Notes: generated by a model from the sequence alone, not told the origin. A stretch of DNA of 64,000 nucleotides from Candidatus Hydrogenedens sp. (GCA_049968235.1 JBMFRC010000001.1:288001-352000), one strand, 5' to 3'. Positions 11,940 to 57,416 are shown, numbered from the stretch's first letter. Made by a program: numbers and translations.

Positions 11940-13499
11940 CTATTCCGGGAATACACCAATGGGGACAGATATCGATTGGTTAATTATCGCCTGTATATCG
12001 CTTGCTCCCAAGCCATTACCATCAACATCTATATCTTTATCAATTGGTGTAATGCCCAAAATGACCTCTACTGCAAGGTCTACATCTTCATCGTTTACTT
12101 TACCATCCGAATTAATGTCACCATCACTCAGGGGAATGTCGCGACGGGTTGCCCATCCATCAACAACCTCAATTCCATTTACACGGTAAGGAATATATCC
12201 TGGTGCTGTAAAAGCAAGGTTGTATGTCCCGGGCAATAATAGCCGATGATAATTTCCTACACGCGGATGACTGAAAACAGGTTGCGTGTTGCCCTGCACT
12301 AAAACCTTTGTCCAGACAGGGTCTCCTGTATTGCGGTCATATACCAATCCACGAATTCCACGTAAAACGCACTCTAAATACGATAACATGGATTCACGGT
12401 TATTATTCCATAATGTCGGTATCCATGACCCAGCCGGGAATTTTGTGTTAAATAATTCTATCGTCATTTCAATACATCCCGTAAATCGATAATTCCAATC
12501 TTGCATTCCACCTGTAACGACATACCACTCCGCACCATTTGTTATTCCGCCGGGAAATTGAGAATTAGTGTACATGGGTGTGTTATGCATAGCATATTGC
12601 GTGGCTATCCACTTCATTAGTGCATCATCCGGTGTCGGTGCCTCAACACCACTGGGACCTCCATCATTGTCATATGGATAATTTACAACCATTGCACCTG
12701 TATGAAAATTTGCAGATAAACTAAAATTGTGTTCTAATGACCAACGCATAATATGCTGAATCTCGGGCTGCCTCGTTTCAATAGATATATTACCTCCATC
12801 ATAATAGAATGTATTGAAATCAGTAGGATAATTGGGAAAAGAACGGTTTAAATCTACGCCATTAGCATTAAACCGTGATACCGCTTCGCGTCCATCCGGA
12901 TTCATCAAAGGCACAATCCATATAGAAACCTCATCAACAACATTTTTAATCCTTGTATCTGTGGAATAGTTTTGCAGGAGATACTCCGCAAAAAACAGAC
13001 ATAACTCTGTCCCGATGGGTTCATCCCCATGTATTGTAGCAATATACTTAAACTCAGGCTCATCTTCTTCTATATCCGGATTATCCGTAATGTGAAGTGC
13101 CCACAATTCTCGTCTCTGCACAGATTGCCCCAATGACATTAAACGGGTAAGAGTCGGATATGTATCGGTAAGGTTTTGTAAAAATTGTGTTAATTCTGCG
13201 TAGTTGTGATACCCTGTAGGTGTTTTCTCTAAGTAAGGCGATGGGTCTGTCCCTATCACTTGTGGTTCAAAACCTTCATTTTGCAATTTTTTCAATGCAT
13301 ACTTCGGAATATAAACACGAGCATAATTCCCATCATACGAATCAACAGAATACCCTTGTTGCTCAAGATAATCAATGTCTGATAGGCTCTTAATTTTTAC
13401 CTGCACGATATACCATATGGGTAAGGATGCTTTCTGCGCAAAAACTTCAATATCGGAGAGAACAACAAATAACAATAGAATTAATACTAATTTTTTCAC
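11940..13499 (-). CDS. secreted M14 zinc carboxypeptidase with carboxypeptidase-regulatory-like domain and C-terminal dockerin-like module
   Basis: Signal peptide, then an M14 HxxE zinc motif (IHGDEPIGTE) and NPDGRE. The C-terminus has two dockerin repeats, DINSDGKVNDEDVDLAVEVILG and DVDGNGLGASDIQAIINQ. Confidence 0.75.
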   Translation of the reverse strand: MKKLVLILLLFVVLSDIEVFAQKASLPIWYIVQVKIKSLSDIDYLEQQGYSVDSYDGNYARVYIPKYALKKLQNEGFEPQVIGTDPSPYLEKTPTGYHNYAELTQFLQNLTDTYPTLTRLMSLGQSVQRRELWALHITDNPDIEEDEPEFKYIATIHGDEPIGTELCLFFAEYLLQNYSTDTRIKNVVDEVSIWIVPLMNPDGREAVSRFNANGVDLNRSFPNYPTDFNTFYYDGGNISIETRQPEIQHIMRWSLEHNFSLSANFHTGAMVVNYPYDNDGGPSGVEAPTPDDALMKWIATQYAMHNTPMYTNSQFPGGITNGAEWYVVTGGMQDWNYRFTGCIEMTIELFNTKFPAGSWIPTLWNNNRESMLSYLECVLRGIRGLVYDRNTGDPVWTKVLVQGNTQPVFSHPRVGNYHRLLLPGTYNLAFTAPGYIPYRVNGIEVVDGWATRRDIPLSDGDINSDGKVNDEDVDLAVEVILGITPIDKDIDVDGNGLGASDIQAIINQSISVPIGVFPE

Positions 13500-41100: not shown

Positions 41101-41601
41101 CATGACCCCTTAGGACCCTGGGCAAGGGTGTGGCATACATGGTTTGGTTATGTCGCATGTGCGGGTGTTGTATTTATCTTCTTATCCTGGGTAGCCTTCA
41201 TGTTCCCTGCTAAAGGGGATTTCCGTTGGTTATTGAAAGCAGGCGGTTATTTAGGTGGTGTTAAAGGACATGTTCCAGCGGGCAAATTTAATGCCGGGCA
41301 AAAAATCCTATTCTGGTTAGCAATACTTGCATCAGGGACCTGTGGAATAACAGGTGTTGTTATGGGACTTAATCGTGGTTTTCACTTCCCAAATCAAGAA
41401 ATATTCTATACGATACACGATATATCTGCACTGGTTATGATTCTGGTACTCATTGCTCATATTTATTTAGCCGCCTTTGTTGTCCCTCACAGTTTGCGGG
41501 CTATTTTCGGAGGAAAGGTAAGCGATATATGGGCAAAAGAACACCATTCACTCTGGGCTTTTACAGTAATTGATGAAAAAAACAATTCATCTGAACATTA
41601 A
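38155..41601 (+). CDS. multiheme c-type cytochrome (8 CxxCH) fused to a C-terminal FdnI/HydC-like di-heme cytochrome b membrane domain (CbcL-like domain content)
   Basis: Signal peptide, then eight CxxCH motifs (CGACH, CGVCH, CFICH, CMFCH, CIDCH, CKKCH, CTACH, CTECH). A Q/T/S/P-rich low-complexity linker follows, then four or five TM helices with conserved His (HAIAMISV, WHTWFGY, HDISALV...IAHIY). Confidence 0.8.
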   Translation: MSKSWRRCISLLVFTLGFLPFLSISAKETTEPLQNIIENYDKYIGRDLVINNRAPNAKVIRTLPLSCPPFHLRDKNGDIIDPTKNADGTPIDPNLPVQQQGIPRAVSTKQTCGACHPYDRITHGYHFQMGRDELYPDTDPSSGVPKDKSPGFFGKWLSLYQRELVGKHFENPEQVDMTPFDWIVNCGVCHPGGGPAEYDRSGKNYATVKKTSPLAGSFGDGDYHESPWEKTGVIEADCFICHLEDYEYSLRAQQIKKWNFEYAATAGAGFGFVWGSTIDGQEPKVYYNKSLFRADGTVHLHIRRPTDRQCMFCHDMSSVQKRGISWHSPYMQDVHTEQGLKCIDCHHGDIRHNFAKGDSSIQTVRDDLDNTILSCKKCHYQQEKGAPYPEHKGLPPLHLERIDCTACHITHRPFLPVSIIDPLTGKAITLPEIQDMNYWGAFEFGGFWGWSRSRDDANLIFPYTEDQLKQAKEYIISNEDNIRKMFKEAFLTDLPEGNIKVADFIQQKQGLENSEARGLMLITLSQLVRPAKEAFPVVVFRNQAYSYDAGQIRELKTTPQPKRPGATIIESSFDLGRSKPDGKIYAQNTQVSAYWVYTDGEEVRPVLLKDMKKAYDWLTSQEYSFSLYSAQPQNGQTSPALPENPFKQAQQTTTTSSENTGALQSQTSPPSDTAERKKTAEEVRQIAEMEENLKSAIQKKIKVYSTSDTRPLKIYDDNNDTFPEVNSQEEIGLFAWALKQTVPSLREKDLYYLRGTTVFRVSVKGGENPYDREFLDMDRIGENKPFIAITRYEQKEESGEYSWDKPKQVWKPVEIRLCSPYEAEIVQVDPKAYPSIIAMAKPLEWTVSHGVEPASRAYGAKGCTECHSENSSFFMGSMLVDPFSENGTPKYVPLWHILGYDISNLKIGAWREGVLKKYAPWIVLIQLLLILVHYVLIGRKEGTPVGKPNVLRFRFYERIAHAIAMISVTFLAITGFFFLMGQHDPLGPWARVWHTWFGYVACAGVVFIFLSWVAFMFPAKGDFRWLLKAGGYLGGVKGHVPAGKFNAGQKILFWLAILASGTCGITGVVMGLNRGFHFPNQEIFYTIHDISALVMILVLIAHIYLAAFVVPHSLRAIFGGKVSDIWAKEHHSLWAFTVIDEKNNSSEH

Positions 41602-42523: not shown

Positions 42524-43759
42524 TTATCTTTCGTTAGAATTATTCTTCAGGATTCCCCTTACCTTGCTATTTTGTGTCAATAACAAGAAGGAAAGAATTA
42601 CTAAAACAAATATATCACTCAGATGTGAATTTGTTGAAGGTCCACCGGAACCGCAAGATACAATGAAAGTTCTCTTGGCTCCTTTACTCATTACCAGTAT
42701 AACCTCTGTCCCCTTAACAACTTCAGTTCCAACAGAGGGCTCGGTTCGGATTATGCTCCCTTTCGGTACATCTTTGCTATATTCTTCTTTAATCGTTGCG
42801 GATACCTTAAGTCCTGCAGATGTTAGTATTTGAATAGCCTCGTCTTTAGATTTTCCTTTAACATCCGGCACTTTTACTTTCTGAATAGGTTCTCCTTCAT
42901 TACTTCCTTCGGGAGTACCTTCAACTACACCTTCAGGGGTTCCTTCTGGACTACCTTCCTGATGACCTTCGACTGTTCCTTCGCCTTCTGCATTCCCTTC
43001 GACAGAACCTTCTGTGCTTCCTTCTATACTACCCTCTTGCATACCTTCAGGAATGCCTTCTGTTGAACCTTCTTGTGCTCCTTCTCCTTCGAGAGTGCCT
43101 TCTATTATACCTTCTTGCTGTCCTTCGGTGATTCCTTCAACATTTCCTTCGCCTTCTGCAGGCGGTTCTAATGGAAGTATTTTAGGTGCTTTCGGGTCAT
43201 CAAACATGGGAACATAAGCAAATATATCGTTGATTTGGACTTGAGCCAAATTTATTTGTGCATCCCCGGTTTGTTTCATACGGAACAATACTTTGAGCAA
43301 TTCAAGACTTCCCTTAGCACCGATATTTTCAGAACTGCTTCCTGCAATTTTCAGACTACCTGTAGCATTTGCATTAGAGTTATAACTTAACTTCATATTG
43401 CTAACTGCATCACCTAATACGACCTCCATTACCTCCGCATATTCTTTATCGAAATTAATTACAAGAGAGAAGCCCGCTATATTGGATACATTGTTCATTA
43501 CCACAGATACCCACTTTTCAGAGCCTGCTGTTCCAGATAAGTAATCTGTTAATTGGGCATAAACAGTTGCATCCTCTTTTTCTACTCGTGCAAGGGTAGA
43601 CTCCGCAGACAAAGAACCTGCATCTGCCAGCCATTTTAAGTCGCTTATATAGTCTTCATAACTCTTTGCGTCTATTTTCTTTCCTGTTGGCATTACATCT
43701 TTACCTGTTAACCAGCGTTGTAGCATGCTGGAGTCAGCACTATCCACCATTCCATCCAT
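42524..43759 (-). CDS. surface protein segment A: cohesin-like domain, xxEG tetrapeptide-repeat linker, PASTA domain and a C-terminal Cys/Gly-motif + TM + basic anchor (probably the 3' part of a disrupted giant gene)
   Basis: Cohesin-like IAGFSLVINFDKEYAEVMEV...GSLELLKVLFRMKQTGDAQI, about 25 xxEG repeats, and PASTA VPDVKGKSKDEAIQILTSAGLKV. The C-terminus is SCGSGGPS...IFVLVILSFLLL...KVRG. The frame is open upstream to 43855 and encodes a dockerin repeat (SGDFNMDGMVDSADSSMLQRWL). Confidence 0.6.
   Translation of the reverse strand: MDGMVDSADSSMLQRWLTGKDVMPTGKKIDAKSYEDYISDLKWLADAGSLSAESTLARVEKEDATVYAQLTDYLSGTAGSEKWVSVVMNNVSNIAGFSLVINFDKEYAEVMEVVLGDAVSNMKLSYNSNANATGSLKIAGSSSENIGAKGSLELLKVLFRMKQTGDAQINLAQVQINDIFAYVPMFDDPKAPKILPLEPPAEGEGNVEGITEGQQEGIIEGTLEGEGAQEGSTEGIPEGMQEGSIEGSTEGSVEGNAEGEGTVEGHQEGSPEGTPEGVVEGTPEGSNEGEPIQKVKVPDVKGKSKDEAIQILTSAGLKVSATIKEEYSKDVPKGSIIRTEPSVGTEVVKGTEVILVMSKGAKRTFIVSCGSGGPSTNSHLSDIFVLVILSFLLLTQNSKVRGILKNNSNER
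42900..43170 (-). repeat. coding tandem repeat: about 25 units of 12 nt encoding xxEG tetrapeptides
   Basis: Periodic ...ccttc... on the plus strand, which is GAAGG(N) on the coding strand. Similar arrays lie at about 44950-45135, 45545-45715 (including a perfect 21-nt duplication encoding MSEGEG twice), 52330-52440 and 54650-54690. Confidence 0.7.
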
Positions 43760-43845
43760 ATTAAAGTCACCGGATTTCTGAATACAGGGATTTCCTCCTG
43801 TGTTATTTGTCCAATAATCCAGGATATATTGTGTGTCTAAATCGT

Positions 43846-46179
43846 TTACTTCATATTATTATCCGCATCACCAAAGACACATCCGTCTGTAACACACAAT
43901 TGTCCATCTTCTAATATAAGTTCTAACGGTTGTGTAAATGAGGAGATCACATCGTATAGGCGAACTCCATTGCCGGCTCCATCATCCGGAATAAGGTGTA
44001 ACTGTCCACATAAAGGACCTAAAACAGATAAATTGGGTTTAGCAATAATATTAAACAGAGTCCCAGCACCATACAAACTTTCTGCTTTTATTCCTGCTGC
44101 AGCAATTCGAACATTAATTGTCTCACCTTGAGGTATAGCTAATGATGCTATCATCATCCCACTAGTAATACCTGATGGTAATACGGTGATAGTCTCGGGG
44201 TCTGATATTAAGGCAGATGGCAATTCCGAATCAATCTGTATGGATGTTGCTGAAACATCATAAACTGATTTTGAGTTCACGGGAATACGAATAAGTATTT
44301 CATCAAGATTTTGTGGATTCGGTTGTAGCCAATAAAGACTGGTATCTGTTATATTAACCTGTTCAGGGAAGAATACGGTTAAGTATTGTCCACGAACCGT
44401 CTCCGAAGCATCTGATAACACAGTATAACGGTCCACATCACTTACAGCCTGTATGGCATATTGGTAGTAAATCCCTAATTCTACCGCATTATCTATATAT
44501 TCTAATGTTGTTAGATAACCTTCATAAGGCAACCTGTCCGGATTATTCAATCGTTGCCAATCTGTCAATGAATTCCCATCTCTATCTACTGTCCTGCGAT
44601 ACACATTATAGCCAGCAATATTATACTCAGGATTTGTATCCCATGCTACGCGAACACTATGCGGTCCACTATAAGGACGTGGACGGAATGATTTTTGAAT
44701 ATTTCCGGGGTCTAATTCAACAAGCAATTCAGCATTGGTATCCACAGGTTGTATCGTTTTGGGCTTATATTTCCGCTTTGTAAAGTCCAAACGATATGGC
44801 GGTTGCAATGTACCTAAATCTGGAAAGGCAAAACGTCCATTATTATCTGTTAGCACAGGTTCATTCCCTTTACTATCTGCAACGCTAATTTGGACTAATA
44901 CACCGGGAATCGGGCTTTTGCTTATACTATTTATCACCTGACCACGAACACCTGCATATTCGCCTTCGAATGTCCCTTCCGTAGTTCCTTCAATAGTTCC
45001 CTCCGGAATTCCTTCAATTACTCCTTCAGGTATTCCTTCAACATTACCATCCATAGGACCTTCGGGAATCCCTTCGATAACACCTTCAATTGTTCCTTCC
45101 GTTACACCTTCAGGTGTCCCTTCTTCACAGGGTCCTGTGGAAACCCAGATATCCACAGGTATTTCTATTGTATTCTCATAATTACAAGTGCCTTCTACAG
45201 CCATAGGTTCTTGCAAAGCGATGTATCCAGCGGGATAATTATTATCACATACCTCAACAATCTGTCCTAATAATAATCCATAATCTACAATTAATTGTTG
45301 TGCCTCTTCCAATGACATACCTATAACATTAGGAACTATGGTACAGGGTCCACAAGAGATAATCAGGTCAACGATTGTTCCAATCTCTACTGTATTTCCA
45401 CCACCGGGTATTTGTTCAACGACTGTGCCTGCCGGGTATTGGTCATTGCACATCTCAATAATAGCACCAATATTTAGGTTGGCATTACTAATTTCTCCCG
45501 TTGCTTCCTGTTGCGGAAGTCCTATCATATATGGAACTATAGTTGTTTCAATAGCACCTTCGCCTTCAGACATCCCTTCGCCTTCAGACATCCCTTCGCC
45601 TTCGAATAGCCCTTCTGAACTGCCTTCAATACTACCTTCGGTAGTTCCTTCAAATGAACCTTCTCCTTCTACAATACCTTCAACTACACCGGGTTCAGGC
45701 TCTCCAATAACAGGATTGAGTGGGTCTTCAAATCTTGGGGTATGTCCATATTTATCGTGTATCTGAACCTGAACAAATTTAATATCGCCTTTTCCATCTC
45801 GCTTAATCTTAAACTTTACTTTTACCAATTCAACTTCTCCAGAGGTTCCCAACTCTTCTTCACCTCCCGCACTTATCCGCAAACTGCTACTGGAACCAGA
45901 ATTTACTACTTCATAATTCCATCGCCATATATTTGCTGCATTCACAGGTTTTACCTGCTTTACTTCAGCAAAATCACTATCATAATTCAAGACAAATTCA
46001 AATCCTGCCACATTTGTTACTTCATCAGCCACAATGGCAATCCATTTATCACTGCCTGCAGACCCTTCTAATGTGCCACGGAACCACACCTTTACTCCCA
46101 CATTATTCTTTTCTAATTTGGCTAACTTTGCTTGTGCGGATAGGGAACCATGGGAAGCTAACCATTTCAATTCATCCAC
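43846..46179 (-). CDS. surface protein segment B: cohesin-like, EG linkers, 2 PASTA, CarboxypepD_reg-like, Fn3-like, cohesin-like, then dockerin repeat 1 (interrupted). No signal peptide of its own, so it is probably the middle part of a disrupted giant gene.
   Basis: The domains can be read off the translation. The frame is open upstream to an in-frame TGA at 46270-46272, and the upstream region encodes dockerin repeats GDVNNDSVIDSTDEQFVLDYW and GDINLDG*VDSADSSLIQRWL. At the 3' end a -1 shift inside dockerin repeat 1 (GDADNNMK* versus in-frame VNDLDTQYILDYW) leads into segment A. Confidence 0.6.
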   Translation of the reverse strand: MDELKWLASHGSLSAQAKLAKLEKNNVGVKVWFRGTLEGSAGSDKWIAIVADEVTNVAGFEFVLNYDSDFAEVKQVKPVNAANIWRWNYEVVNSGSSSSLRISAGGEEELGTSGEVELVKVKFKIKRDGKGDIKFVQVQIHDKYGHTPRFEDPLNPVIGEPEPGVVEGIVEGEGSFEGTTEGSIEGSSEGLFEGEGMSEGEGMSEGEGAIETTIVPYMIGLPQQEATGEISNANLNIGAIIEMCNDQYPAGTVVEQIPGGGNTVEIGTIVDLIISCGPCTIVPNVIGMSLEEAQQLIVDYGLLLGQIVEVCDNNYPAGYIALQEPMAVEGTCNYENTIEIPVDIWVSTGPCEEGTPEGVTEGTIEGVIEGIPEGPMDGNVEGIPEGVIEGIPEGTIEGTTEGTFEGEYAGVRGQVINSISKSPIPGVLVQISVADSKGNEPVLTDNNGRFAFPDLGTLQPPYRLDFTKRKYKPKTIQPVDTNAELLVELDPGNIQKSFRPRPYSGPHSVRVAWDTNPEYNIAGYNVYRRTVDRDGNSLTDWQRLNNPDRLPYEGYLTTLEYIDNAVELGIYYQYAIQAVSDVDRYTVLSDASETVRGQYLTVFFPEQVNITDTSLYWLQPNPQNLDEILIRIPVNSKSVYDVSATSIQIDSELPSALISDPETITVLPSGITSGMMIASLAIPQGETINVRIAAAGIKAESLYGAGTLFNIIAKPNLSVLGPLCGQLHLIPDDGAGNGVRLYDVISSFTQPLELILEDGQLCVTDGCVFGDADNNMK

Positions 46180-46269
46180 ATATCCTTTGCCCGCTGTTGA
46201 GATTTTTGGAGGTGTAATACTTTTTCTTGCTAACCAACGCTGAATTAAACTGGAATCCGCACTATCTAC

Positions 46270-47574
46270 TCACCCATCGAGATTAATATCTCCTGATTTT
46301 AAGATGCATGAATGTGCACCTACTTTCCTAACCCAATAATCCAGAACAAATTGCTCATCTGTACTATCAATTACACTATCATTATTTACATCTCCATGAA
46401 TACATCCCCCTGAAACGCATAATCGTCCATCCACAAGAAGCACAGGTAAGGTTCTGTCTGATTTTGAATTACATTATATAACCGAACACCATTTCCCACA
46501 CCATCATCAGGAACTAAATGTAATAAACCACACTCATTCAAAAGATTTAAGCGAGGTTTTGCAAGAATATTAAATAATACTCCAGAACCATATAAACTCT
46601 CTGCTATCCCACCAGCAGATGATATACGAACATTAATTTTATCTCCATTTCTAACGGCATTGGCACTTATATTCATACCTGCGGTAATACCTGAGGGCTC
46701 CACCGTAATTGTGTCGGGATTGAGCAATAAACTTCTGGGCAATTCCGCATCGATTTGTATGGAAGTAGTGGAAACATCATATACAGCCTCTGAATTAACA
46801 GGTATTCTTACTAATTGTTGTTATGGATTTTGAGGGTCTCTTTCCCAGAGAAACATACCGCTATCTTTATAATTTACTTGTTCCGGGAAGAAAATAGTTA
46901 AAAATTGCCCTACTACATCTTCCGAAGCATCCGAAAGATTGGAATAACGGTCGACATCACTAACTGCCTGTATTGCATATTGATAGCGAATACCCGGTTG
47001 TATTGCGGTATCTGTATATTCTAATCCTCCAATATATCCTTCATAAGGAGGTAATCCCGGATTATTCAATTTTGCCCAAATAGAACTTCCTACTGTCCGA
47101 CGATATACATTATAGCCAGCAATGTTATATTCAGGATTTGTATCCCATCCAATACGGACACTATTGGTTCCTCCATAAACACGAGGAATGGTGGGTCTCT
47201 GAATATTTCCCGGCTCTATTTCCGCAAAAAGTTCTGCACCCGAATCAACAGGTTGAACCGTTTTCGGTTTAAATTTATTCTTTGTAAAATCCAGACGATA
47301 GGGAGGTAATAAACTCCCTAAATCGGAAAATTCAAATAGCCCATTTTTCATCTGTTAAAACAGGCTCTGTACTCTGTTTATCTGCAATACTTATTCCAAC
47401 AAGTACTCCCTCTACAGGTTTTTTGCTAATACTGTTAATAACCTGTCCCTTAACACTAAAGACTTTTTCTGCTACTGCTTGATTAGTAATAGCACATGCT
47501 ATTACTAATAGTGATATGCTCAAAAATATATTATTTTTTACAAAAATTGACTTTGCCCTACTTTTTGCATTCAT
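46270..47574 (-). pseudogene. surface protein segment C: signal peptide, CarboxypepD_reg-like, Fn3-like, cohesin-like, dockerin; disrupted by one frameshift at ~47340, an in-frame TAA at 46812-46814, a frameshift at ~46420 and a TGA at 46270
   Basis: Three ORF fragments (47332-47574, 46821-47351, 46386-46742) plus a dockerin-encoding stretch align residue-by-residue with the C-terminal half of segment B. The disruptions are a +1 in an A5 run, a CAA-like codon replaced by TAA, a -1 in a TT/TTT run, and TGA where the paralog has ATG. Confidence 0.6.
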
Positions 47575-47745
47575 TTTAGGTCTCCTTTGATTTATTCGCT
47601 CCAGTAGTTGGTTATTTTTTTATCCTTATTAAATAGCATTTAATAACAAAATTTGCCTGTTTTTTTGATAATCGTTGCCTCAAATAAGAACTATGATTCT
47701 TATGTGATTAGTGGTGAATAGAAGAAAATAATACTATTTTTAGAC

Positions 47746-49925: not shown

Positions 49926-52184
49926 ATGCATTTCTGGCTGATTAATGACAATGTTTTATTAAAATCTTCCCGTGCAGACATCGGTGGAAAAGGCTGGGGG
50001 CTGGTTCGATTAAAATTACAGGGATTAAATGTGCCACCTTTCGGAATAATCAGCACAGAAGGTGTGAAATATAAACTCTGGAAAACCGATACAGATTTTC
50101 AAAATGCAATAATGGCATGGTGTAAAGAGATATGGGATTGTTCCATAAGTAAGAAAGTAATCGTCCGCTCATCTGCATGTGAGGAAGACCATCAACATCA
50201 TTCTTTTGCAGGAAAGTTTTTAACAGAGGTTATAACAAAGCCAGAAGAACTTGTTCCAACACTGGACAGGATAGCCAAACATTATGCTTTAACTATAAAA
50301 ATGGATACGGGGAATTTTTCTGAAGGTCCCCATGGACTTGCAATTATTCTCCAGGAGTTTGTCAGTGGTGAAATCTCCGGCGTATGCTTTTCGACCCGAC
50401 CTATGAATGCAAATCCTCAACAAGTATATTGTGAAGTAGTAAATGGTGAAAATAAGTTGTTGGTTGATGGGGAAATACAACCCACTCGGATACTTTTTTA
50501 TCCCTCCACCGCAGAATTGATAGATTTTCAGGAAGGTTCTAATGGACCTGAATCAATACCTGAAGAATTATTAATAGAATTATCTCATGGGCTAATGAAG
50601 ATGGAATGGGATTACCGCACTGCAGTGGATATGGAATGGACATGGAATGGTAACAAGGTATGGTTTTTACAGATTCGCCCAATTACAAAGGTAACTCCTT
50701 CCCATAATTTATATCCAAAGGAATGTGCTACTTGCTGGTTTTTTGACCAACGTTTTATTGAACCGATTACAACTATTACCCAAACCACACTTATTCCGTT
50801 AATCCTGAGAAAGGCAATCACAGAGGGACTTAACATGCGACGAAAAAATACCCCCATTGAACCGTATTACTTTGGGGGTCAGGTGTATATCCCCCATCGG
50901 GCTTACTTCGATTTACTGGAGGGTTGTCCTAAATGGTGGCTTTCCTCCGATTTAAAACTGTTATTCCCTAATAACTGTGGTTGCCCGCATAAAAAAAAGA
51001 ACTTCCTGGGAATAGAATTCTGGCTGGATGCTTTTCGTTCATTGTTAAAACACTGGCGTGATGCTATTTTTGTGTTATGTCGCTGGGGACAATGGAAGAA
51101 GGATTTATCAAAGAAATTAAGTCTGTGGAATAAGGAGGATTTGTCAGAGATTACAACAGATGAATGGGTAACGCAATGGGAGCAATGCCAGAGATTATCC
51201 GAAGAATTTTTAGAAATACATCGCTGGGCAATACTCTGGTCCAGTTATGTATATCGTTTAGGGGGAAAGTATATCGTTCGTGGTAAGGAAAGACAGTATC
51301 CCTCTATTACGACACGGGCAAATCACATATTGACATCTTATTTATTCACCCGTGACATAAAATTATTAGCCCTCCTTCGCACTGAATATTCACACCGCAC
51401 AGAAAGTCTCGATTTTATATCTCCTCGATGGGGAGAATGGCTTTCCGGTGAGGAACAAAATGAATTGTTTAAAACGCAATTATTAGAGGAGAGGAAAGAT
51501 ATTCCATTAACATCACTGCAAACAAGGGAAAAAGCAGGTATTCTGTATCGTATTTTCGCAAAGTTTATACATCTGCGTGAGGAACAACGATTTGAATGGG
51601 AAAAAATATTAAATGTACAGAAAAAATTATTAAAGGAAGCAGGTAAACGATTGGTAGAAAAAGGTATCTTGATGGAGATAAATCAGGTCTGGTTTATAAG
51701 CGGGCTGGAATTAATGGAAGCACTTATAAAGGATAAGCCAATTAATCTAAAAGAAGTTTTGCTACGCCAACATCAATGGTGCGTTGAACATATATTTACA
51801 AAACCATTATTTATCAACGAAGGTGGTTTCATACTATCTACTTCCGAAAAAGATAAAGATACATGGTCAGGCTGGGGTGTGTCCGAAGGAAGAGTAAAAG
51901 GGACTGCCTATGTGAGCAGTAATCCGACTTCACTCCCATCCAATATCGCACATCCTCGTATTCTTGTAACACCTTGTTTAAATCCCGGACAGACATGGTG
52001 TCTGCAATACTGGGACGGTGTTCTATTGGAACGAGGCAGTGAACTGTCTCATCCTGCTATCATTGCACGGGAGATGAATATCCCCATGATTGCGAATTTA
52101 CCTGAGATTACACATAAACTAAACACGGGCGATTTAATTTATATAGATGCAACTTATGGTAAAGTTAGCCGTTTAAAATCTTAA
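49926..52184 (+). CDS. PEP-utilising enzyme family protein: N-terminal PPDK-type ATP-grasp (PEP/pyruvate-binding) domain plus C-terminal phosphohistidine mobile domain (rifampicin-phosphotransferase-like architecture)
   Basis: N-terminus ADIGGKGWGLVRL. The C-terminus has GRVKGTAYV... and ...ILVTPCLNPGQTW...ERGSELSHPAIIAREMNIPMIA (swivel His). There is no PEP-utilising TIM-barrel domain. Confidence 0.65.
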   Translation: MHFWLINDNVLLKSSRADIGGKGWGLVRLKLQGLNVPPFGIISTEGVKYKLWKTDTDFQNAIMAWCKEIWDCSISKKVIVRSSACEEDHQHHSFAGKFLTEVITKPEELVPTLDRIAKHYALTIKMDTGNFSEGPHGLAIILQEFVSGEISGVCFSTRPMNANPQQVYCEVVNGENKLLVDGEIQPTRILFYPSTAELIDFQEGSNGPESIPEELLIELSHGLMKMEWDYRTAVDMEWTWNGNKVWFLQIRPITKVTPSHNLYPKECATCWFFDQRFIEPITTITQTTLIPLILRKAITEGLNMRRKNTPIEPYYFGGQVYIPHRAYFDLLEGCPKWWLSSDLKLLFPNNCGCPHKKKNFLGIEFWLDAFRSLLKHWRDAIFVLCRWGQWKKDLSKKLSLWNKEDLSEITTDEWVTQWEQCQRLSEEFLEIHRWAILWSSYVYRLGGKYIVRGKERQYPSITTRANHILTSYLFTRDIKLLALLRTEYSHRTESLDFISPRWGEWLSGEEQNELFKTQLLEERKDIPLTSLQTREKAGILYRIFAKFIHLREEQRFEWEKILNVQKKLLKEAGKRLVEKGILMEINQVWFISGLELMEALIKDKPINLKEVLLRQHQWCVEHIFTKPLFINEGGFILSTSEKDKDTWSGWGVSEGRVKGTAYVSSNPTSLPSNIAHPRILVTPCLNPGQTWCLQYWDGVLLERGSELSHPAIIAREMNIPMIANLPEITHKLNTGDLIYIDATYGKVSRLKS

Positions 52185-55100
52185 GTTCGAAAGGTCTGAC
52201 TTGTCCAACGGGTGTTCTCTCCTTCGCATACCACTCATAGCAAGTAATAACATGCCCATCAACACAAAATCCAATAGATATTTTAACCAATTGTCTCCAT
52301 CCCTGGATTTATGATTACACCCACAAATTCCAGTATTTTGCCCCTCTCCTTCCCCTTCTCGAGTGCCCTCAACATTCCCTTCCACTATTCCTTCCGGATT
52401 ACCTTCTTGAGTTCCTTCCAGAGTTCCTTCACTAACTACTATACCTGCTTCTGCTTTATCAATATATCCATCCTTATTGGTATCAGCACTATCAAAAGTA
52501 TCTCGGGACAGGGTGGAATATCGTGCCACTGCTTCTTCATAGGAAACTTTCCCATCCTTATTCGTATCCACCAAATCAAAATTTGTTTTTAGGTCATTTA
52601 TGAATTGCTCTACCCCGGTTATGGTAATAGAAGCACCTTTTGCATTAATTACTCCATACCAACTCAGGTCATCTCCAAATTCCCCCTTTATTTTTACTTC
52701 GCGTATTTGAATGTTTATTTTCTTTGATGTCATCGTTGTGGGTTTAAACTTTATTTGTATAATTCGTCCTTTTTCTTTTGTTGTAATGGGTTTTTCGCTA
52801 CTTATTGAAACTTTCAAATAACCCTCACCGACTTCTGTATCCTTCTTAAAGTTGCTGGCAATATCTGCCATGTTTAATCCGTAGAAATTTATACCTTCAT
52901 CATAGGTTAAGAGCAAATCCATTCCCGCAACACCTAATAATGAACTTAATTCTATACCTGTGCGATATTCATTGTTTGAGTCCGGTGTTAGGTTATCTAC
53001 AACAATTTCCACCGTACGATTATTTTCCGTTTCTAACAAGGCTTTTTCCCCAATCACGGTTGAACTCGGATTGATTGGAAGCCCTGCCAATTTACGCAGT
53101 AGTAACGACACATCCGCACAATCTAAAATTCCATCTCCATTAAAATCACCTCTCCGTTTATCACATTCCAAATCAACAATACCTGCTTTGCGAACAATCT
53201 TGCGCAGGAACACAATCGTATCAGACATACCAATGTAACCATCAGTATCCATATCTCCATAGATGCAACGACTACTAATACAATTCGTATCTGGGTTTTC
53301 TTCCAATACATTGAGTTGTCCATGAACCAATTCTACTGGCAATTCCTTCTGCTGGGTATCTTTAATAATAACCTTCTGCAATTTCAGGTCTGTATCCTGA
53401 GCACAACTTCCTGCCACTGTATTCTGTCGCACACGAAAAACCATATCAAAGAGGTGTCCTTCTCCATAAAGCACTTTCTTCTCATTATCAACTCTGGGTC
53501 CCGCATGGAATTTTATAACACCCTGTGTACGGGTATCCGAAACAACCTCAAGATTTCGTGTTACAACCGTTTTTTGAACCTCTACAAGTTCAAGCACTGT
53601 GTTGTTGTAACTCACATTAATATCAATCGTATAGGGTTCCAATCCCCGTACACTGTTTATATTTATCGGTATCTGAATTGTATCCCCACTTCCTTCTGGT
53701 ATCCAATCGATTGTAGGTATCCATACACGTAGCTTACCCGGTTCTGCTTTGACAGGCTCTGTAGGGTCGCTTTGTTGTTGATTGGTAGCAATAGCAATCA
53801 AACGATAATACCATGCCCGAGAGGTATCCACTTCGTTATCTGTGTAATTTGTACCTGTAATAATATTTGAGGAAACAGTAATCCACGGTCCGTTTCGTGT
53901 TTCGCTTCGTTCTAATTGGTATCCTGCAAGATTTCGCTCCACATTAGGCTCCCAGATAAGATAAACATGGTCTATCCCTGAAAAAACCTGCAATCCATGA
54001 GGGGTTGAAATCTTTGTCCCAGCAGGGTCAGGACCATTACTTACAATTAACTCAACCGTTGTTCCGTTCAATACGGAACTTCCTCCAACAGGAGATTGTC
54101 CCATTACAACATTTTGTGAAACGGTATCGCTATACTGCATTACTGTACGGGTCAGCAAACCCGTAGATTGGATTTGCCCTATTGCAGAAGTTATATTCTG
54201 CCCAATAACATCCGGTACCGTGATATATGTGTTTCCAGAACATTGTCCTGTTGAAACCCAAATTGTAACTTCCGCACCTCGATTTACTCCACTATAAGCA
54301 ATTGGTGATTGGCGTATTACCTGCCCCATGGCAACATAATTGTTACATTCCCGTTCCACCTTAACATGCAAATCCGCTATCTGTATTGCCTCATTCGCCT
54401 GCTGTTCGCTTCTCCCTACAACATCTGGAACCAATACACCCGGACATAATCCACTGGATACAGTTAACTGAATATAGGTTCGTGATGAAATTACATCTCC
54501 CGATGATGGGATTTGACTCAGGACATTTCCCTGTGCCACTGTGTTACTACAGTTATAAGTCGTACGGATTCTATTCAGTCCTACACCTTCAAGAGTGTTT
54601 TTTGCTTGTTGTTCTGTCATACCGACCACCCCCGGAATAGTTACGAAGATTTCTCCTTCTCCTGTTCCTTCGCCCTCTCCCTCTCCTATAAGGTCTACAA
54701 TCCATTTAAGTAATGGATAATCTGTCCCTTCATTTGCAACCCATATATTAACAAAATCCCAATCGTTGTATGTTGCTTGCTTATACATTTCTATTGTGGT
54801 TTTTCCTGTTCCACCATCGGAAAACGATGTCCCGGCAGATTGCACATCCCAATAACTGGACACTACTGTTCCTCCATCGTTATACCCAACAAGCCCACCA
54901 ACATATAGTTTCCCCGTAACATTGGCACTGCTATAACAATTACGAATATTTGTTTCAAAAGAATTCTCAGTATTCATTTGGTACCCAACCAATCCACCGA
55001 TAAACGAATTTCCGCCAACAAAGGAATCATAAACAAAACTATCTGTTATATTGCCACCATAATTTATCCCTACAAAACCACCCACTCCATAATCAGCTGT

Positions 55101-57416
55101 TTCGCCATTCACAAGTATTTCACCGGCAACACATCTTAATATTTTCCCCTTATTTCCACCGACGAATCCACCAATACTATCATCTTGGCTTATTCCCGAA
55201 ATATAACTTGCCAGGACACCACATTCCACAATTTCACACTCACTATCAACAACAACACCCGCTATAGCACCCACAAAATAATACCCTGTAAAACTACTTT
55301 CAACAATTATTAAATTTTGAATCTTTCCCGGAGAGGTTACAATCCCAAACAGAGCTGTATAATCCGCCTCAGAATTATCAATATAAAGGTTAGAAATAAT
55401 ATGGTTTTGCCCATTAAAATTACCTCTAAATGGTTTTTCCCATGTTCCTATGGGTCTAAACCCTTTCCCATTATTCCAGTTGACTGTATCACTTGCATCT
55501 ATATCTTGAGTCAAAATATATGAACCAAAAGGTGGATAATCCGGGTCATTCCCTATCTTTTGCAACTCCTCAATACTATCTATTTCAATAGTTGGACAGG
55601 GACCTTTGAAAACGAACAAATATACTTCGCTGTTCTGTATAACTTGTGCTCCACCTTCGGGTGATTGACCTATAACAGTACCCACCGGAGTAATTTCTTC
55701 ACCGCACCCATAATCGACAATTACATGGAAACCCATTTCTTGTAGAGTAGTAACAGCATTTGCTTCTGTCATTCCCATTACATCCGGCATGTTAACATAA
55801 ACACAGCGTCCTGTTGAAACAACAATATATACAGTGCTATCTATTTGCACAACATTTCCTGCAATGGGTTCCTGCTCTATAACAACCCCTTCAGGAATAT
55901 TGTCATCACAACGGTATAGGACATTGGCAGAGAGATTTTGTACCTGAACTGTATTTATAGCGGTAGTTTCATCCATCCCGATAACATCAGGTATTGTTAT
56001 AGAACAGGGTCCTCGTGAAATAAGCAAAGAAATCTCCACATCAGGTAATTCATTTGTGCCCGGTACGGGGTTTTGAGTTATCACTGCCCCAGAAGGAACT
56101 CCATCATGGCAATCATAATATGTAGTGATTGTACCCGTAAACCCGGAGGAACGAAGTAAATTTATAGCTTCTGTCCCATTCATTCCTACAACATTAGGTA
56201 GGGGGATGAAACACGGACCTGTGGACACAATAATGGAAACAGTACCATTAAGCTCAACCGATGCCCCTGCTCCGGGCTGTTGGTCCATAACTACCCCCGC
56301 AGGATATATATTGCTACAACTATAAGACACATCAGCAATCAATCCCAATCCATTTAACATATTAACTGCATTTTCTTCCATCATTCCTAACAAACTTGGA
56401 ACTTCCACCGTATGTTGTATATTTATAACCCATCTCAAATAGGGATAGTCTGTTCCCTCTTCTATACCCCATACATTCGTGAAATCCCAGCCTGCATAAG
56501 TCGCCTGTTGTTTCATTTCTCCCGTAGTTTTCCCTGTTCCACCATCAGAAAAGAACATTTGGGACACAGTCGTATCCCAATAACTGGATGTTACAGTCCC
56601 CCCATCATTAAATCCGATAAGTCCACCTATATACATGGTTCCTGCTACAGCCGAACTACTATAACAATTTGTAACTGTGCCAGTGCTTTTCTTTGAATTT
56701 TCGAGTATTCCAACCAGACCACCGACACCGTATGCTCCTGCTATTGAGGTGATATATGAAGATGAATACACACAACTATTTATAATAACTCCACCTGTAT
56801 TACGACCCACCAATCCACCCACTCCATATTGAGCATAACTATCATAAATTGTCGAATTAGAAACTACACATCTATCTATAACTCCATAATTTCCTCCTAC
56901 CAATCCACCAACACTATTATATATGCTTCCCATCCCTTCAATATCTGAAGAGGCAACTCCACATTCTCTGATTTCTCCCGCCATATTTAATCCAACCAAT
57001 CCCCCGATAAATAAAGAACCTGCGATATTGGAATTAAATAAAATAACATTGTGAACATTCCCGCCGGATATATTTCCAAACAAACCTGCAAATTCAGATT
57101 GTCTATTAATATAAAGATAGTAAATACCATAATTCTGACCATCAAAACTCCCTGTAAATGGATTATTCGTATCCCCTATCGGTTTAAATCCTCTGCCACT
57201 ATCCCAATTAATTGTATCGCTGGCATCTATATCCCGTGTTAATACATAATTCCCGTTAAGTGGATATTCAGGCTCATTCCCTATTCTCTGCAAATCTACA
57301 ATATTGCTTATAGGAATACCTTGTGCGGAAACCAAAATACACATGCAAAAAACAAAAATGGTCAATAGTGATAAAATATAGGTAGATTCTCTCGTAGACA
57401 TTTTACAATACCTCAA
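52173..57416 (-). CDS. giant (1747-aa) secreted surface protein: signal peptide, GLUG-like beta-helix module, 4 PASTA, second GLUG-like module, EG linker, 3 PASTA, Fn3-like, cohesin-like, dockerin, cohesin-like, EF-hand pair, xxEG linker, C-terminal Cys/Gly-motif + TM + basic anchor
   Basis: An intact ORF. Repeated GGLVG motifs occur in two ~300-aa modules that are about 50% identical to each other. There are seven PASTA units (…PDV[IV]GM…). The dockerin is GDMDTDGYIGMSDTIVFLRK…GDFNGDGILDCADVSLLLRKL and the EF-hand pair DTNKDGKVSYEE / DTNKDGYIDKAE. The C-terminus is GICGCNHKS…LLDFVLMGMLLLAMSGMRRRE. Confidence 0.8.
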   Translation of the reverse strand: MRYCKMSTRESTYILSLLTIFVFCMCILVSAQGIPISNIVDLQRIGNEPEYPLNGNYVLTRDIDASDTINWDSGRGFKPIGDTNNPFTGSFDGQNYGIYYLYINRQSEFAGLFGNISGGNVHNVILFNSNIAGSLFIGGLVGLNMAGEIRECGVASSDIEGMGSIYNSVGGLVGGNYGVIDRCVVSNSTIYDSYAQYGVGGLVGRNTGGVIINSCVYSSSYITSIAGAYGVGGLVGILENSKKSTGTVTNCYSSSAVAGTMYIGGLIGFNDGGTVTSSYWDTTVSQMFFSDGGTGKTTGEMKQQATYAGWDFTNVWGIEEGTDYPYLRWVINIQHTVEVPSLLGMMEENAVNMLNGLGLIADVSYSCSNIYPAGVVMDQQPGAGASVELNGTVSIIVSTGPCFIPLPNVVGMNGTEAINLLRSSGFTGTITTYYDCHDGVPSGAVITQNPVPGTNELPDVEISLLISRGPCSITIPDVIGMDETTAINTVQVQNLSANVLYRCDDNIPEGVVIEQEPIAGNVVQIDSTVYIVVSTGRCVYVNMPDVMGMTEANAVTTLQEMGFHVIVDYGCGEEITPVGTVIGQSPEGGAQVIQNSEVYLFVFKGPCPTIEIDSIEELQKIGNDPDYPPFGSYILTQDIDASDTVNWNNGKGFRPIGTWEKPFRGNFNGQNHIISNLYIDNSEADYTALFGIVTSPGKIQNLIIVESSFTGYYFVGAIAGVVVDSECEIVECGVLASYISGISQDDSIGGFVGGNKGKILRCVAGEILVNGETADYGVGGFVGINYGGNITDSFVYDSFVGGNSFIGGLVGYQMNTENSFETNIRNCYSSANVTGKLYVGGLVGYNDGGTVVSSYWDVQSAGTSFSDGGTGKTTIEMYKQATYNDWDFVNIWVANEGTDYPLLKWIVDLIGEGEGEGTGEGEIFVTIPGVVGMTEQQAKNTLEGVGLNRIRTTYNCSNTVAQGNVLSQIPSSGDVISSRTYIQLTVSSGLCPGVLVPDVVGRSEQQANEAIQIADLHVKVERECNNYVAMGQVIRQSPIAYSGVNRGAEVTIWVSTGQCSGNTYITVPDVIGQNITSAIGQIQSTGLLTRTVMQYSDTVSQNVVMGQSPVGGSSVLNGTTVELIVSNGPDPAGTKISTPHGLQVFSGIDHVYLIWEPNVERNLAGYQLERSETRNGPWITVSSNIITGTNYTDNEVDTSRAWYYRLIAIATNQQQSDPTEPVKAEPGKLRVWIPTIDWIPEGSGDTIQIPININSVRGLEPYTIDINVSYNNTVLELVEVQKTVVTRNLEVVSDTRTQGVIKFHAGPRVDNEKKVLYGEGHLFDMVFRVRQNTVAGSCAQDTDLKLQKVIIKDTQQKELPVELVHGQLNVLEENPDTNCISSRCIYGDMDTDGYIGMSDTIVFLRKIVRKAGIVDLECDKRRGDFNGDGILDCADVSLLLRKLAGLPINPSSTVIGEKALLETENNRTVEIVVDNLTPDSNNEYRTGIELSSLLGVAGMDLLLTYDEGINFYGLNMADIASNFKKDTEVGEGYLKVSISSEKPITTKEKGRIIQIKFKPTTMTSKKINIQIREVKIKGEFGDDLSWYGVINAKGASITITGVEQFINDLKTNFDLVDTNKDGKVSYEEAVARYSTLSRDTFDSADTNKDGYIDKAEAGIVVSEGTLEGTQEGNPEGIVEGNVEGTREGEGEGQNTGICGCNHKSRDGDNWLKYLLDFVLMGMLLLAMSGMRRREHPLDKSDLSNLRF

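Follow-up and report, generated by a model that had tools for sequence, protein, structure and literature searches.

Architecture of the giant gene

A stretch of 64,000 nucleotides from Candidatus Hydrogenedens sp. (GCA_049968235.1 JBMFRC010000001.1:288001-352000), the whole of which is called the window hereafter, carries a giant gene on its minus strand, at 52173..57416, which encodes a modular protein with two cohesins and a type I dockerin between them. The open reading frame (ORF) had been described in a first-pass annotation made from the DNA alone, and its extent was confirmed exactly: it is open for 1747 amino acids (aa) from a TTG codon and closes with the stop codon at 52173-52175. 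The ATG at 57401 is the likelier start, because a GAGG sequence lies 9 nt upstream of it, and the product would then have 1742 aa. With either start, the exact protein sequence is not on record among public contigs. The features of the gene are as follows:

52173..57416, minus strand: giant ORF, 1747 aa from TTG or 1742 aa from the ATG at 57401
57321..57401, minus strand: predicted signal peptide, aa 6-32, MSTRESTYILSLLTIFVFCMCILVSAQ followed by G (sequence inspection)
56412..57320, minus strand: GLUG module 1, aa 33-335 (Pfam Glug, five stretches, expectation value (E) 4e-16, 58.7 bits)
55596..56405, minus strand: PASTA domains 1-4, aa 338-607 (Pfam PASTA; sequence)
54693..55595, minus strand: GLUG module 2, aa 608-908 (Pfam Glug, four stretches, E 7.5e-12, 45.3 bits)
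54030..54650, minus strand: PASTA domains 5-7, aa 923-1129 (Pfam PASTA; PASTA region of NF033483)
53757..54029, minus strand: Fn3 domain, aa 1130-1220 (family profile against the PDB)
53301..53735, minus strand: cohesin 1, aa 1228-1372 (conserved GEGHLFD motif and C1338)
53073..53270, minus strand: type-I-like dockerin, aa 1383-1448 (two Ca2+ loops, DMDTDGYIGMSD and DFNGDGILDCAD; C1384-C1418 pair; trailing GLPINP)
52617..53024, minus strand: cohesin 2, divergent, aa 1465-1600 (profile against the PDB, Pfam matches of homologues, predicted local distance difference test (pLDDT) above 90 in the model)
52437..52610, minus strand: canonical EF-hand pair, aa 1603-1660 (Pfam EF-hand_5/1/6/7, up to 47 bits)
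52176..52331, minus strand: C-terminal tripartite tail, aa 1696-1747 (G-I-C-G-C signature, WLKYLLD plus hydrophobic helix, RRR)

Identity of the cohesin, dockerin and Fn3 modules

At the level of domain identity, the cohesin and dockerin modules of the giant protein truly belong to the cohesin and type I dockerin families. Cohesin 1 matches Pfam Cohesin (PF00963) at E 3.9e-12 with 47 bits against a cutoff of 24.1, the match covering aa 1243-1370 and profile positions 12-139 of 139; across scans its score ranged from 44.8 bits, as an isolated segment, to 52 bits. Cohesin 2 is more divergent, and on its own (aa 1445-1603) it gives no Pfam match and stays below the gathering score of PF00963. A family profile made from seven sequences nevertheless retrieves from the PDB the Archaeoglobus fulgidus cohesin 2xdh_A (E 6.6e-08) together with other cohesins, four of the seven homologues pass Pfam Cohesin in their own right (best E 1.8e-15), and Foldseek aligned the predicted model of the region over both modules of a cohesin dyad. 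Both modules show the nine-stranded, flattened beta-sandwich of the jelly-roll type, and the cohesins of the giant protein have a genuine type I fold.

The dockerin scores 13.9 bits against Dockerin_1 (PF00404) in the context of the whole protein and 24.3 bits as an isolated segment, with a cutoff of 22.9, and the isolated segment aligns to profile positions 1-56 of 57. Its two repeats, DMDTDGYIGMSD+TIVFLRKIV and DFNGDGILDCAD+VSLLLRKLA, are segments of about 22 residues in which a Ca2+ loop, defined over 12 residues as D-x-[DN]-x-D-G-x-[IVL]-x-x-x-D, is followed by a helix. Six of the seven homologues match Dockerin_1 at E<=0.01, and the two dockerins of the broken paralogous gene in the window (see below) match clearly, with 46.2 and 28.5 bits. 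The module has the three-helix fold of dockerins, as opposed to that of a generic EF-hand pair. A true EF-hand pair is present elsewhere in the protein (matched by Pfam at aa 1603-1656 on the whole protein), with the loops DTNKDGKVSYEE and DTNKDGYIDKAE; it was considered as a second dockerin and rejected, given the Glu at position 12 of its loops and a score of 47 bits with EF-hand models versus 16 with Dockerin_1. As for the Fn3 domain, the Pfam fn3 model itself does not match this region; the family profile identifies in the PDB titin Fn3 (E 8.5e-37), the Fn3-like structure 3mpc of Clostridium thermocellum (4.7e-11) and fibronectin (8e-05).

These results agree for the most part with the first-pass annotation, which had listed two GLUG-like modules, seven PASTA domains, an Fn3-like domain and two cohesin-like regions flanking a dockerin. 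The GLUG and PASTA modules are borne out by Pfam, the Fn3 domain by its profile, the first cohesin by Pfam, the second by profile, homologues and Foldseek, and the dockerin by its two canonical loops and its three-helix fold. The alternative that it had itself raised, namely that the cohesin-like regions were unrelated beta-sandwiches or the dockerin only a generic EF-hand pair, does not describe what was found. It was mistaken in describing the dockerin as followed by the EF-hand pair, since the pair comes after cohesin 2.

A widespread Coh-Doc-Coh cassette

The giant protein has close relatives in the databases. Its C-terminal 837 residues are identical to P0001, a 'PASTA domain-containing protein, partial [Candidatus Hydrogenedens sp.]' from a metagenome-assembled genome (MAG) at NCBI, and a full-length homologue of the same architecture has 1729 aa (P0021/P0170, UniParc UPI00037BD219). 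Further full-length homologues measure 1501 aa (P0022) and 1203 aa (P0075), P0022 and its relatives being annotated as 'PASTA domain-containing protein [Candidatus Hydrogenedens sp.]'. Proteins homologous to the C-terminal part have the succession Fn3-Coh1-Doc-Coh2 in common. The extent of this relationship became apparent with a profile of the 381-residue Coh1-Doc-Coh2 segment (window 52614-53756), which retrieved 492 representatives at E<=1e-30 from a set of 1.84 billion representative proteins (50% clustering). Of the best 150 among these 492, which range from 350 to 3100 aa, nearly all align to profile positions ~1-369 as one continuous match. Re-analysis of the same 150 delivered 144 full-length cassettes, located at a median of about 100 residues from the C-terminus and about 490 from the N-terminus, and exactly one Coh1, one Doc and one Coh2 are present in 128 of 143 proteins. 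The suggestion that no described family shows this combination of domains was therefore not sustained, given the full-length homologues of identical architecture and the 492 representatives that carry Coh-Doc-Coh.

Conservation within the cassette extends to its functional motifs. In cohesin 1 the GEGHLFD motif is conserved, both Gly residues being present in 99-100%; in the dockerin, Asp at positions 1 and 12 of each Ca2+ loop is 94-100% conserved in 145 homologues, the remaining Ca2+-loop ligands are likewise well conserved, and position 18 of repeat 2 is Arg in 131 of 145, with S10/A11 also conserved. The conserved loop Asp residues and Arg 18 point to a functional dockerin in the family. 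A GLPxNP motif follows the dockerin (its final Pro is 95% conserved), cohesin 2 contains a conserved L.G.YG.D..W motif, and the tether between cohesin 1 and the dockerin is very short in most members. The N-terminal passengers, on the other hand, vary: GLUG plus PASTA in the giant protein, and elsewhere NosD-type beta-helix plus Big_2, BACON/cadherin/Big_9, leucine-rich repeats (LRR) or DUF5011. Coh-Doc-Coh is one evolutionary unit, a cassette widespread among large and mostly uncharacterised surface proteins, and PASTA/GLUG is an exchangeable passenger. The combination of PASTA and GLUG is real and represents a lineage-specific choice of passenger, already present in databases and unstudied.

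Regarding distribution, all named family members belong to Candidatus Hydrogenedens or Hydrogenedentota, an uncultured phylum, except one Candidatus Aureabacteria, and in a scan of species-representative genomes the matches listed comprise at least two loci, one in a Hydrogenedentes MAG and one, matching the dockerin only, in a Syntrophomonadaceae MAG. In six of the 143 cassette proteins the anchor is replaced by an additional dockerin-like module at the C-terminus. Other endings were observed right after the cassette, including '...W.LY[EQ]' as last residues (13 proteins), '...[FY]LP[LV]V.R', and a domain of the form 'HTADY...LSELLR.IQ.YN..G....C....EDGFC' (nine proteins). This variety of C-termini suggests that the cassette has been combined with several alternative anchoring or sorting devices. 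No description of the Hydrogenedentota cassette was found in the searchable literature; the apparent novelty lies in a fixed Coh-Doc-Coh triplet, a widespread unit with a compact predicted structure that forms the base of many giant surface proteins.

Predicted structure and covariation of the cassette

AlphaFold2 run with a 27-sequence alignment produced a model of the cassette with a mean pLDDT of 89.9 and a predicted template-modelling score (pTM) of 0.88, all five models falling between 86 and 90. The dockerin reaches a pLDDT of about 93, and confidence is low only in the linker from the dockerin to cohesin 2. A previous level of depth, an alignment of seven sequences, gave a pLDDT of 67.8 and a pTM of 0.43, values at which the arrangement between domains is too uncertain to interpret. 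On the deeper alignment Coh-Doc-Coh is predicted to fold as one compact unit. No solved chain reproduces this three-module arrangement in a Foldseek search, the best query-normalised TM-score being 0.34.

Covariation across 145 cassettes, measured as mutual information, gave two pairs of cysteines as its top two signals. Cys 118 and Cys 159 (cassette positions) are both present in 64 sequences, both absent in 77 and mixed in 4, and Cys 164 and Cys 198 are both present in 66, both absent in 74 and mixed in 5; each pair is gained or lost together, and independently of the other. In the giant protein the first pair corresponds to C1338-C1379, connecting the strand 7/8 loop of cohesin 1 to the Coh1-Doc junction, and the second to C1384-C1418, connecting the N-terminus of the dockerin to the linker between its repeats (both in window ~53160-53405). 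This pattern implies two disulfides, one that would staple the end of cohesin 1 and one that would clasp the dockerin, and therefore a location outside the cytoplasm. A further signal, ranking seventh, links D45 in strand 3 of cohesin 1 with position 10 of dockerin repeat 1 (D with S in 44 sequences, Q with I/V/K in 17). It presumably resembles a contact of the 1OHZ type, in which the 8-3-6-5 sheet of the cohesin meets the Ser/Thr pair of the dockerin, and it hints, weakly, at an intra-chain interface of the canonical kind; the signal may also be phylogenetic in origin. The covariation of H101/G358, D104/N229 and N229/W366 follows the split between subfamilies and was not used as evidence of contact.

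The confident compactness of the model, with a pTM of 0.88, and the fixed Coh1-Doc-Coh2 stoichiometry in 128 of 143 proteins favour a dockerin that is engaged internally. We give a probability of roughly 50% to a pedestal model, in which the cassette, stabilised by Ca2+ and stapled by disulfides, stands between the anchor and an exchangeable passenger, and the dockerin is engaged by its neighbours in the same chain. According to this pedestal model, the C-terminal third of the giant protein would constitute a conserved base formed by Fn3, cohesin 1, type I dockerin, cohesin 2, EF-hand pair, an acidic Gly/Glu linker and the tail. Its Coh-Doc-Coh core would fold into a compact and Ca2+-dependent three-module unit held by the two disulfides, the dockerin would pack against the flanking cohesin or cohesins, most likely bound within the same chain, and the whole would act as a rigid support that separates the membrane or sorting anchor from whatever is displayed.

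Several considerations weigh against an internally bound dockerin. A pTM of 0.88 denotes a confident arrangement, not a canonical cohesin-dockerin interface, and AlphaFold applied to a monomer can place within one chain contacts that occur between identical chains; besides, the alignment contained 27 sequences only. The covariation beyond the cysteine pairs mostly tracks subfamily splits and may be phylogenetic. Moreover, the extra C-terminal dockerin-like module of 6 of the 143 proteins fits docking between chains onto a free cohesin, and Amy4 of Ruminococcus bromii, a self-recognising protein with both a cohesin and a dockerin, multimerises between chains (PMC4611034).

The last two points fit an inter-chain mode of self-assembly, in which the dockerin would bind the cohesin of a neighbouring molecule and cassette proteins would join into head-to-tail polymers or into a mixed surface lattice dependent on Ca2+. 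The presence of one dockerin and two cohesins on a single chain is compatible with this arrangement, as are the near symmetry of the dockerin repeats (FLRKIV and LLRKLA) and the example of Amy4. The surface of the second dockerin helix is conserved across paralogues (R18 in 131 of 145, S10/A11), so that different cassettes could be cross-compatible, and genomes contain several cassette genes, with three cassettes in the window itself. A compact monomer at pTM 0.88 is nevertheless unexpected if the dockerin swings out to reach another molecule, the Coh1-dockerin tether is very short in most family members, and the strict 1:1:1 stoichiometry suits a closed unit, a lattice builder having no need of a second cohesin in each member. 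Head-to-tail polymerisation had been proposed by the first-pass annotation; in that form it loses ground to the compact model and the fixed stoichiometry of modules, and binding between chains survives as a rather unlikely, though serious, alternative to the pedestal.

C-terminal tail and cellular location

The giant protein ends in GICGC...WLKYLLDFVLMGMLLLAMSGM-RRR, that is, a signature Cys, a membrane helix and an Arg cluster, after which 13 more residues follow; a Glu/Gly-rich linker (aa 1661-1695) separates this tail from the EF-hand pair. In its subfamily (P0002-P0006, P0021, P0022, P0075) the tail consists of C-x-C, about 10 residues, W(W)KY(I/L)LD, a hydrophobic helix and SGM(R/K)RR, the C-x-C being invariant in six homologues. 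The paralogue family has a variant of the same plan (..FIVSCG.., membrane helix and basic cluster), and a Cys followed by a membrane helix and a basic cluster closes 47 of the 143 cassette proteins. This tail is probably a membrane anchor or a sorting signal. Cys-type tripartite sorting signals, predicted to be cleaved, have been described by Haft (bioRxiv 10.1101/2023.06.07.544157). The tail resembles those signals (MYXO-CTERM and relatives) in its Cys signature, its hydrophobic helix and its Arg-rich extreme C-terminus on large surface proteins. It differs from them in its signature, G-C-G-C ... W-W-K-Y-L-L-D, and in lacking a match to NCBIfam CTERM models, none of which matched any of four tails at E<=10. 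The Cys-containing tail may represent a protein-sorting signal not described before. The window ORFs scanned include no gene of the CPBP, exosortase or rhomboid kind; the locus of a syntenic ortholog, L001, which is treated below, has a rhomboid gene at a distance of four genes.

At the other end of the protein, the putative signal peptide displays, on inspection, an Arg in the n-region, a hydrophobic core and small residues ahead of the predicted cleavage site. The giant protein had been taken for a secreted one; the signal peptide agrees with this, and simple secretion does not accord with an ending made of a Cys motif, a hydrophobic helix and RRR. The protein would rather be a Sec-exported, C-terminally anchored cell-envelope protein of a Hydrogenedentota bacterium. 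Genes for LolA and DUF481 in the window suggest that this envelope is of the diderm type.

An anchored protein of this kind need not be exposed at the surface. The C-terminal helix could act as a stop-transfer segment in the inner membrane, leaving in the periplasm a structural or sensing element, not an adhesin, whose PASTA arrays bind the cell's own peptidoglycan. PASTA domains are classically linked to peptidoglycan-binding proteins, and those of the giant protein match the PASTA region of NF033483; the signal peptide and the helix followed by RRR place the ectodomain outside the cytoplasmic membrane, LolA and the outer-membrane-type DUF481 protein suggest an outer membrane beyond it, and the failure of the tail to match any known CTERM model is in line with a plain membrane anchor. 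On the contrary, a Cys signature just upstream of the helix is the plan of Haft's Cys-type signals (bioRxiv 10.1101/2023.06.07.544157) and suggests processing and export. Furthermore, the passengers of the family are typical modules of outer-surface adhesins (LRR, cadherin-like, BACON, Big_2), and a beta-helix/PASTA rod of ~1700 aa is long for a periplasm. A periplasmic location is the least probable of the readings discussed here, and a surface-exposed pedestal is preferred.

The GLUG/PASTA passenger

The N-terminal two thirds of the giant protein would form two GLUG beta-helix heads, each mounted on a rod of disulfide-bonded PASTA domains. On the whole protein Glug (PF07581) matches eight stretches at E 1.1e-20, the count being five plus four when the two modules are scanned separately. 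GLUG module 1, presumed to be a right-handed beta-helix head, ends in a GKTT.EM..QATY.GWDF..VW....DYPYL.W motif, and GLUG module 2 is an internal duplicate of it. PASTA (PF03793) matches seven stretches with 280.5 bits and E 3.3e-85 on the whole protein, above the gathering score, and the linker GEGEGEGTGEGE (aa 911-922) precedes PASTA domains 5-7. Each of PASTA domains 1-4 contains a Cys pair (..YxC.. / ..GPC). Over the full set, a pair with one Cys in the middle of the repeat (..Y.C..) and one at its end (..G.C) is conserved in six of the seven repeats (window 54030-56405), which suggests one disulfide per repeat and a rigid rod; we know of no such pair in the PASTA domains of penicillin-binding proteins (PBPs) or kinases. 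This passenger, lineage-specific and exchangeable, would presumably serve in ligand binding or adhesion.

The exchangeable nature of these modules is also manifested at the syntenic ortholog locus L001 (GCA_036769585.1), whose product is 72-78% identical in the C-terminal half and which lacks about 2.4 kb. The missing stretch begins where GLUG module 1 starts and closes where GLUG module 2 ends (L001 9743-10100 versus window 54400-57000), and the L001 frame passes directly from the opening residues of GLUG module 1 into the final residues of GLUG module 2 (...NIDASDTT followed by IEMYQQATYTGWDF...). This difference apparently arose by recombination between the two GLUG modules. The gene caller had begun this ortholog at an internal Met, giving a product of 850 aa.

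Genomic neighbourhood and candidate partners

The giant gene stands alone, with a convergent gene for a phosphoenolpyruvate (PEP)-utilising enzyme on one side and a divergent block encoding an acetyltransferase, P5C reductase, DivIVA, LolA and Maf on the other, and this gene order is kept in L001. Most other window ORFs scanned are housekeeping genes, among them those for DnaB, SSB, SHMT, RelA/SpoT, DapA and ADP-forming acetyl-CoA synthetase, and neither a glycoside hydrolase nor a carbohydrate-binding module was found in any of the scanned ORFs. The non-cellulolytic context that had been noted for the giant gene is in agreement with these neighbours. Two other features of the window are related to the cohesin-dockerin theme:

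42527..47619, minus strand: broken paralogous gene with two tandem CarboxypepD_reg-Fn3-Coh1-Doc-Coh2-GE linker-PASTA units
11970..12125, minus strand: dockerin-like C-terminus of an M14 carboxypeptidase (ORF 11940..13499; Dockerin_1 11.8 bits, E 0.3)

The broken gene is paralogous to the C-terminal half of the giant ORF, begins with a signal peptide and finishes with a ..VSCG.. and transmembrane tail. It contributes two of the three cassettes in the window, the third being that of the giant gene. Its frame is interrupted by three frameshifts and two in-frame stops, a TAA at 46821-46823 and a TGA at 46270-46272, the latter inside the second Ca2+ loop. Recoding of these stop codons was considered and rejected, since the three frameshifts co-occur with them and all other ORFs of the window read normally; more likely the gene is a pseudogene, or its repeat-rich sequence was misassembled. 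Intact homologues occur in other Hydrogenedens MAGs (P0007-P0014).

The M14 carboxypeptidase is a secreted zinc enzyme (Peptidase_M14, E 1.5e-65) that also contains a CarboxypepD_reg domain, and of the two loops in its tail, DINSDGKVNDED is a canonical Ca2+ loop and DIDVDGNGLGASD is irregular. The enzyme had been put forward in the first-pass annotation as a candidate for recruitment by the giant protein, and it would be one possible partner if the cohesins operate as in a scaffoldin, capturing dockerin-tagged secreted enzymes to form a non-cellulolytic 'cellulosome', whose targets might be peptidoglycan or proteins retained by the PASTA or GLUG modules. The genuine type I fold of the cohesins and the single canonical loop of the M14 tail are consistent with this possibility, and the six of 143 cassette proteins that end in an additional dockerin-like module provide the type of ligand that a free cohesin would accept. 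There is also a precedent in R. bromii Sca2, whose cohesins bind dockerins of proteins other than glycosidases, such as peptidases (PMC4611034). The proposal is weakened by the M14 tail itself, which at 11.8 bits (E 0.3) remains far from the Dockerin_1 cutoff of 22.9 and has an irregular spacing in its second loop, so the specific claim about this peptidase is not supported as it was put forward. In addition, no further enzyme with a dockerin came to light in a regular-expression search for the Ca2+ loop over the window ORFs, and the giant gene shares no operon with enzymes, its neighbours being genes for a PEP-utilising enzyme, an acetyltransferase, P5C reductase, DivIVA and LolA. The giant protein also has only two cohesins, at least one of which its own dockerin probably engages. 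Recruitment of this sort is very unlikely, and the pedestal remains the favoured role for the cassette.

Two neighbouring genes deserve a separate comment. The ORF at 49926-52184 (plus strand, 752 aa) encodes the PEP-utilising enzyme, with a PPDK_N ATP-binding domain and a PEP-utilizers mobile domain and no match to the PEP/pyruvate-binding TIM-barrel domain; it adjoins the giant gene also in L001, and in the window its 3' end overlaps that of the giant ORF by 12 bp (52173-52184). Further away, the ORF at 38155-41601 (plus strand, 1148 aa) joins motifs of multihaem cytochromes c (cytochrome c7/c3, NapC/NirT) to a C-terminal membrane domain of the cytochrome b561 type (Ni_hydr_CYTB), an unusual fusion that might be connected with electron transfer outside the cytoplasm.

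Comparison with known systems

Cohesins and dockerins outside cellulosomes have been known for about 25 years, with A. fulgidus, the toxins of Clostridium perfringens and the amylosome of R. bromii as examples, and their function is still largely unexplained. The system presented here is not a cellulosome, because the enzyme set (among the window ORFs scanned), the carbohydrate-binding module and the anchor types of such complexes were looked for and not found. Compared with the scaffoldins CipA of C. thermocellum and ScaA/ScaB of Acetivibrio cellulolyticus, the giant protein has neither a carbohydrate-binding module recognised by Pfam nor an array of many cohesins, and no dockerin-bearing glycoside hydrolases were detected among the window ORFs scanned. 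Instead of the surface layer homology (SLH) modules or the LPXTG/sortase anchors of scaffoldins, it carries a Cys, a membrane helix and an Arg tail.

The PASTA domains invite a comparison with Ser/Thr kinases and PBPs (PknB/Stk1, PBP2x). The tandem PASTA array matches NF033483 with 254.7 bits and only over model positions 364-563, far below the equivalog cutoff of 450, and the giant protein has no kinase or transpeptidase domain, unlike Stk1/PknB. In contrast to the PASTA repeats of those PBPs and kinases, its repeats are situated between beta-helix heads, in the manner of spacer rods.

R. bromii Amy4 is alike in that both partners reside on one polypeptide in a non-cellulolytic setting, and recognition of its own dockerin by the Amy4 cohesin is a documented route to multimerisation (PMC4611034). 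Amy4 is an enzyme of glycoside hydrolase family 13 (GH13) whose C-terminal dockerin is free for binding between chains, whereas the Hydrogenedens protein has no catalytic module and its dockerin is internal, enclosed between two cohesins in a unit predicted to be compact. If the dockerin is indeed held by its own cohesin, this would constitute a new use of the pair, as a self-locking, Ca2+-dependent and possibly force-bearing pedestal instead of an assembly plug; binding between chains would make for a cell-surface lattice of a novel type. A more speculative extension, which we regard as distinctly unlikely, is a Hydrogenedentota coat in which dozens of surface proteins per genome would be interlocked by cross-compatible, Ca2+-dependent Coh-Doc-Coh cassettes and delivered by an undescribed Cys-type sorting system, carrying adhesins and enzymes, among them dockerin-tailed ones like the M14 peptidase, with no relation to cellulose. 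The cassette is small (381 aa), confidently predicted and directly testable as a recombinant protein.

The A. fulgidus protein from which the 2xdh cohesin derives also combines a cohesin with a dockerin, and it has no conserved Coh-Doc-Coh triplet, Fn3 domain, EF-hand, Cys tail or PASTA/GLUG passenger. The Hydrogenedens cassette is, in contrast, a family of several hundred proteins, at least 492 representatives at 50% clustering; these giant surface proteins differ greatly in other respects and inherit a fixed Coh-Doc-Coh close to their anchor.

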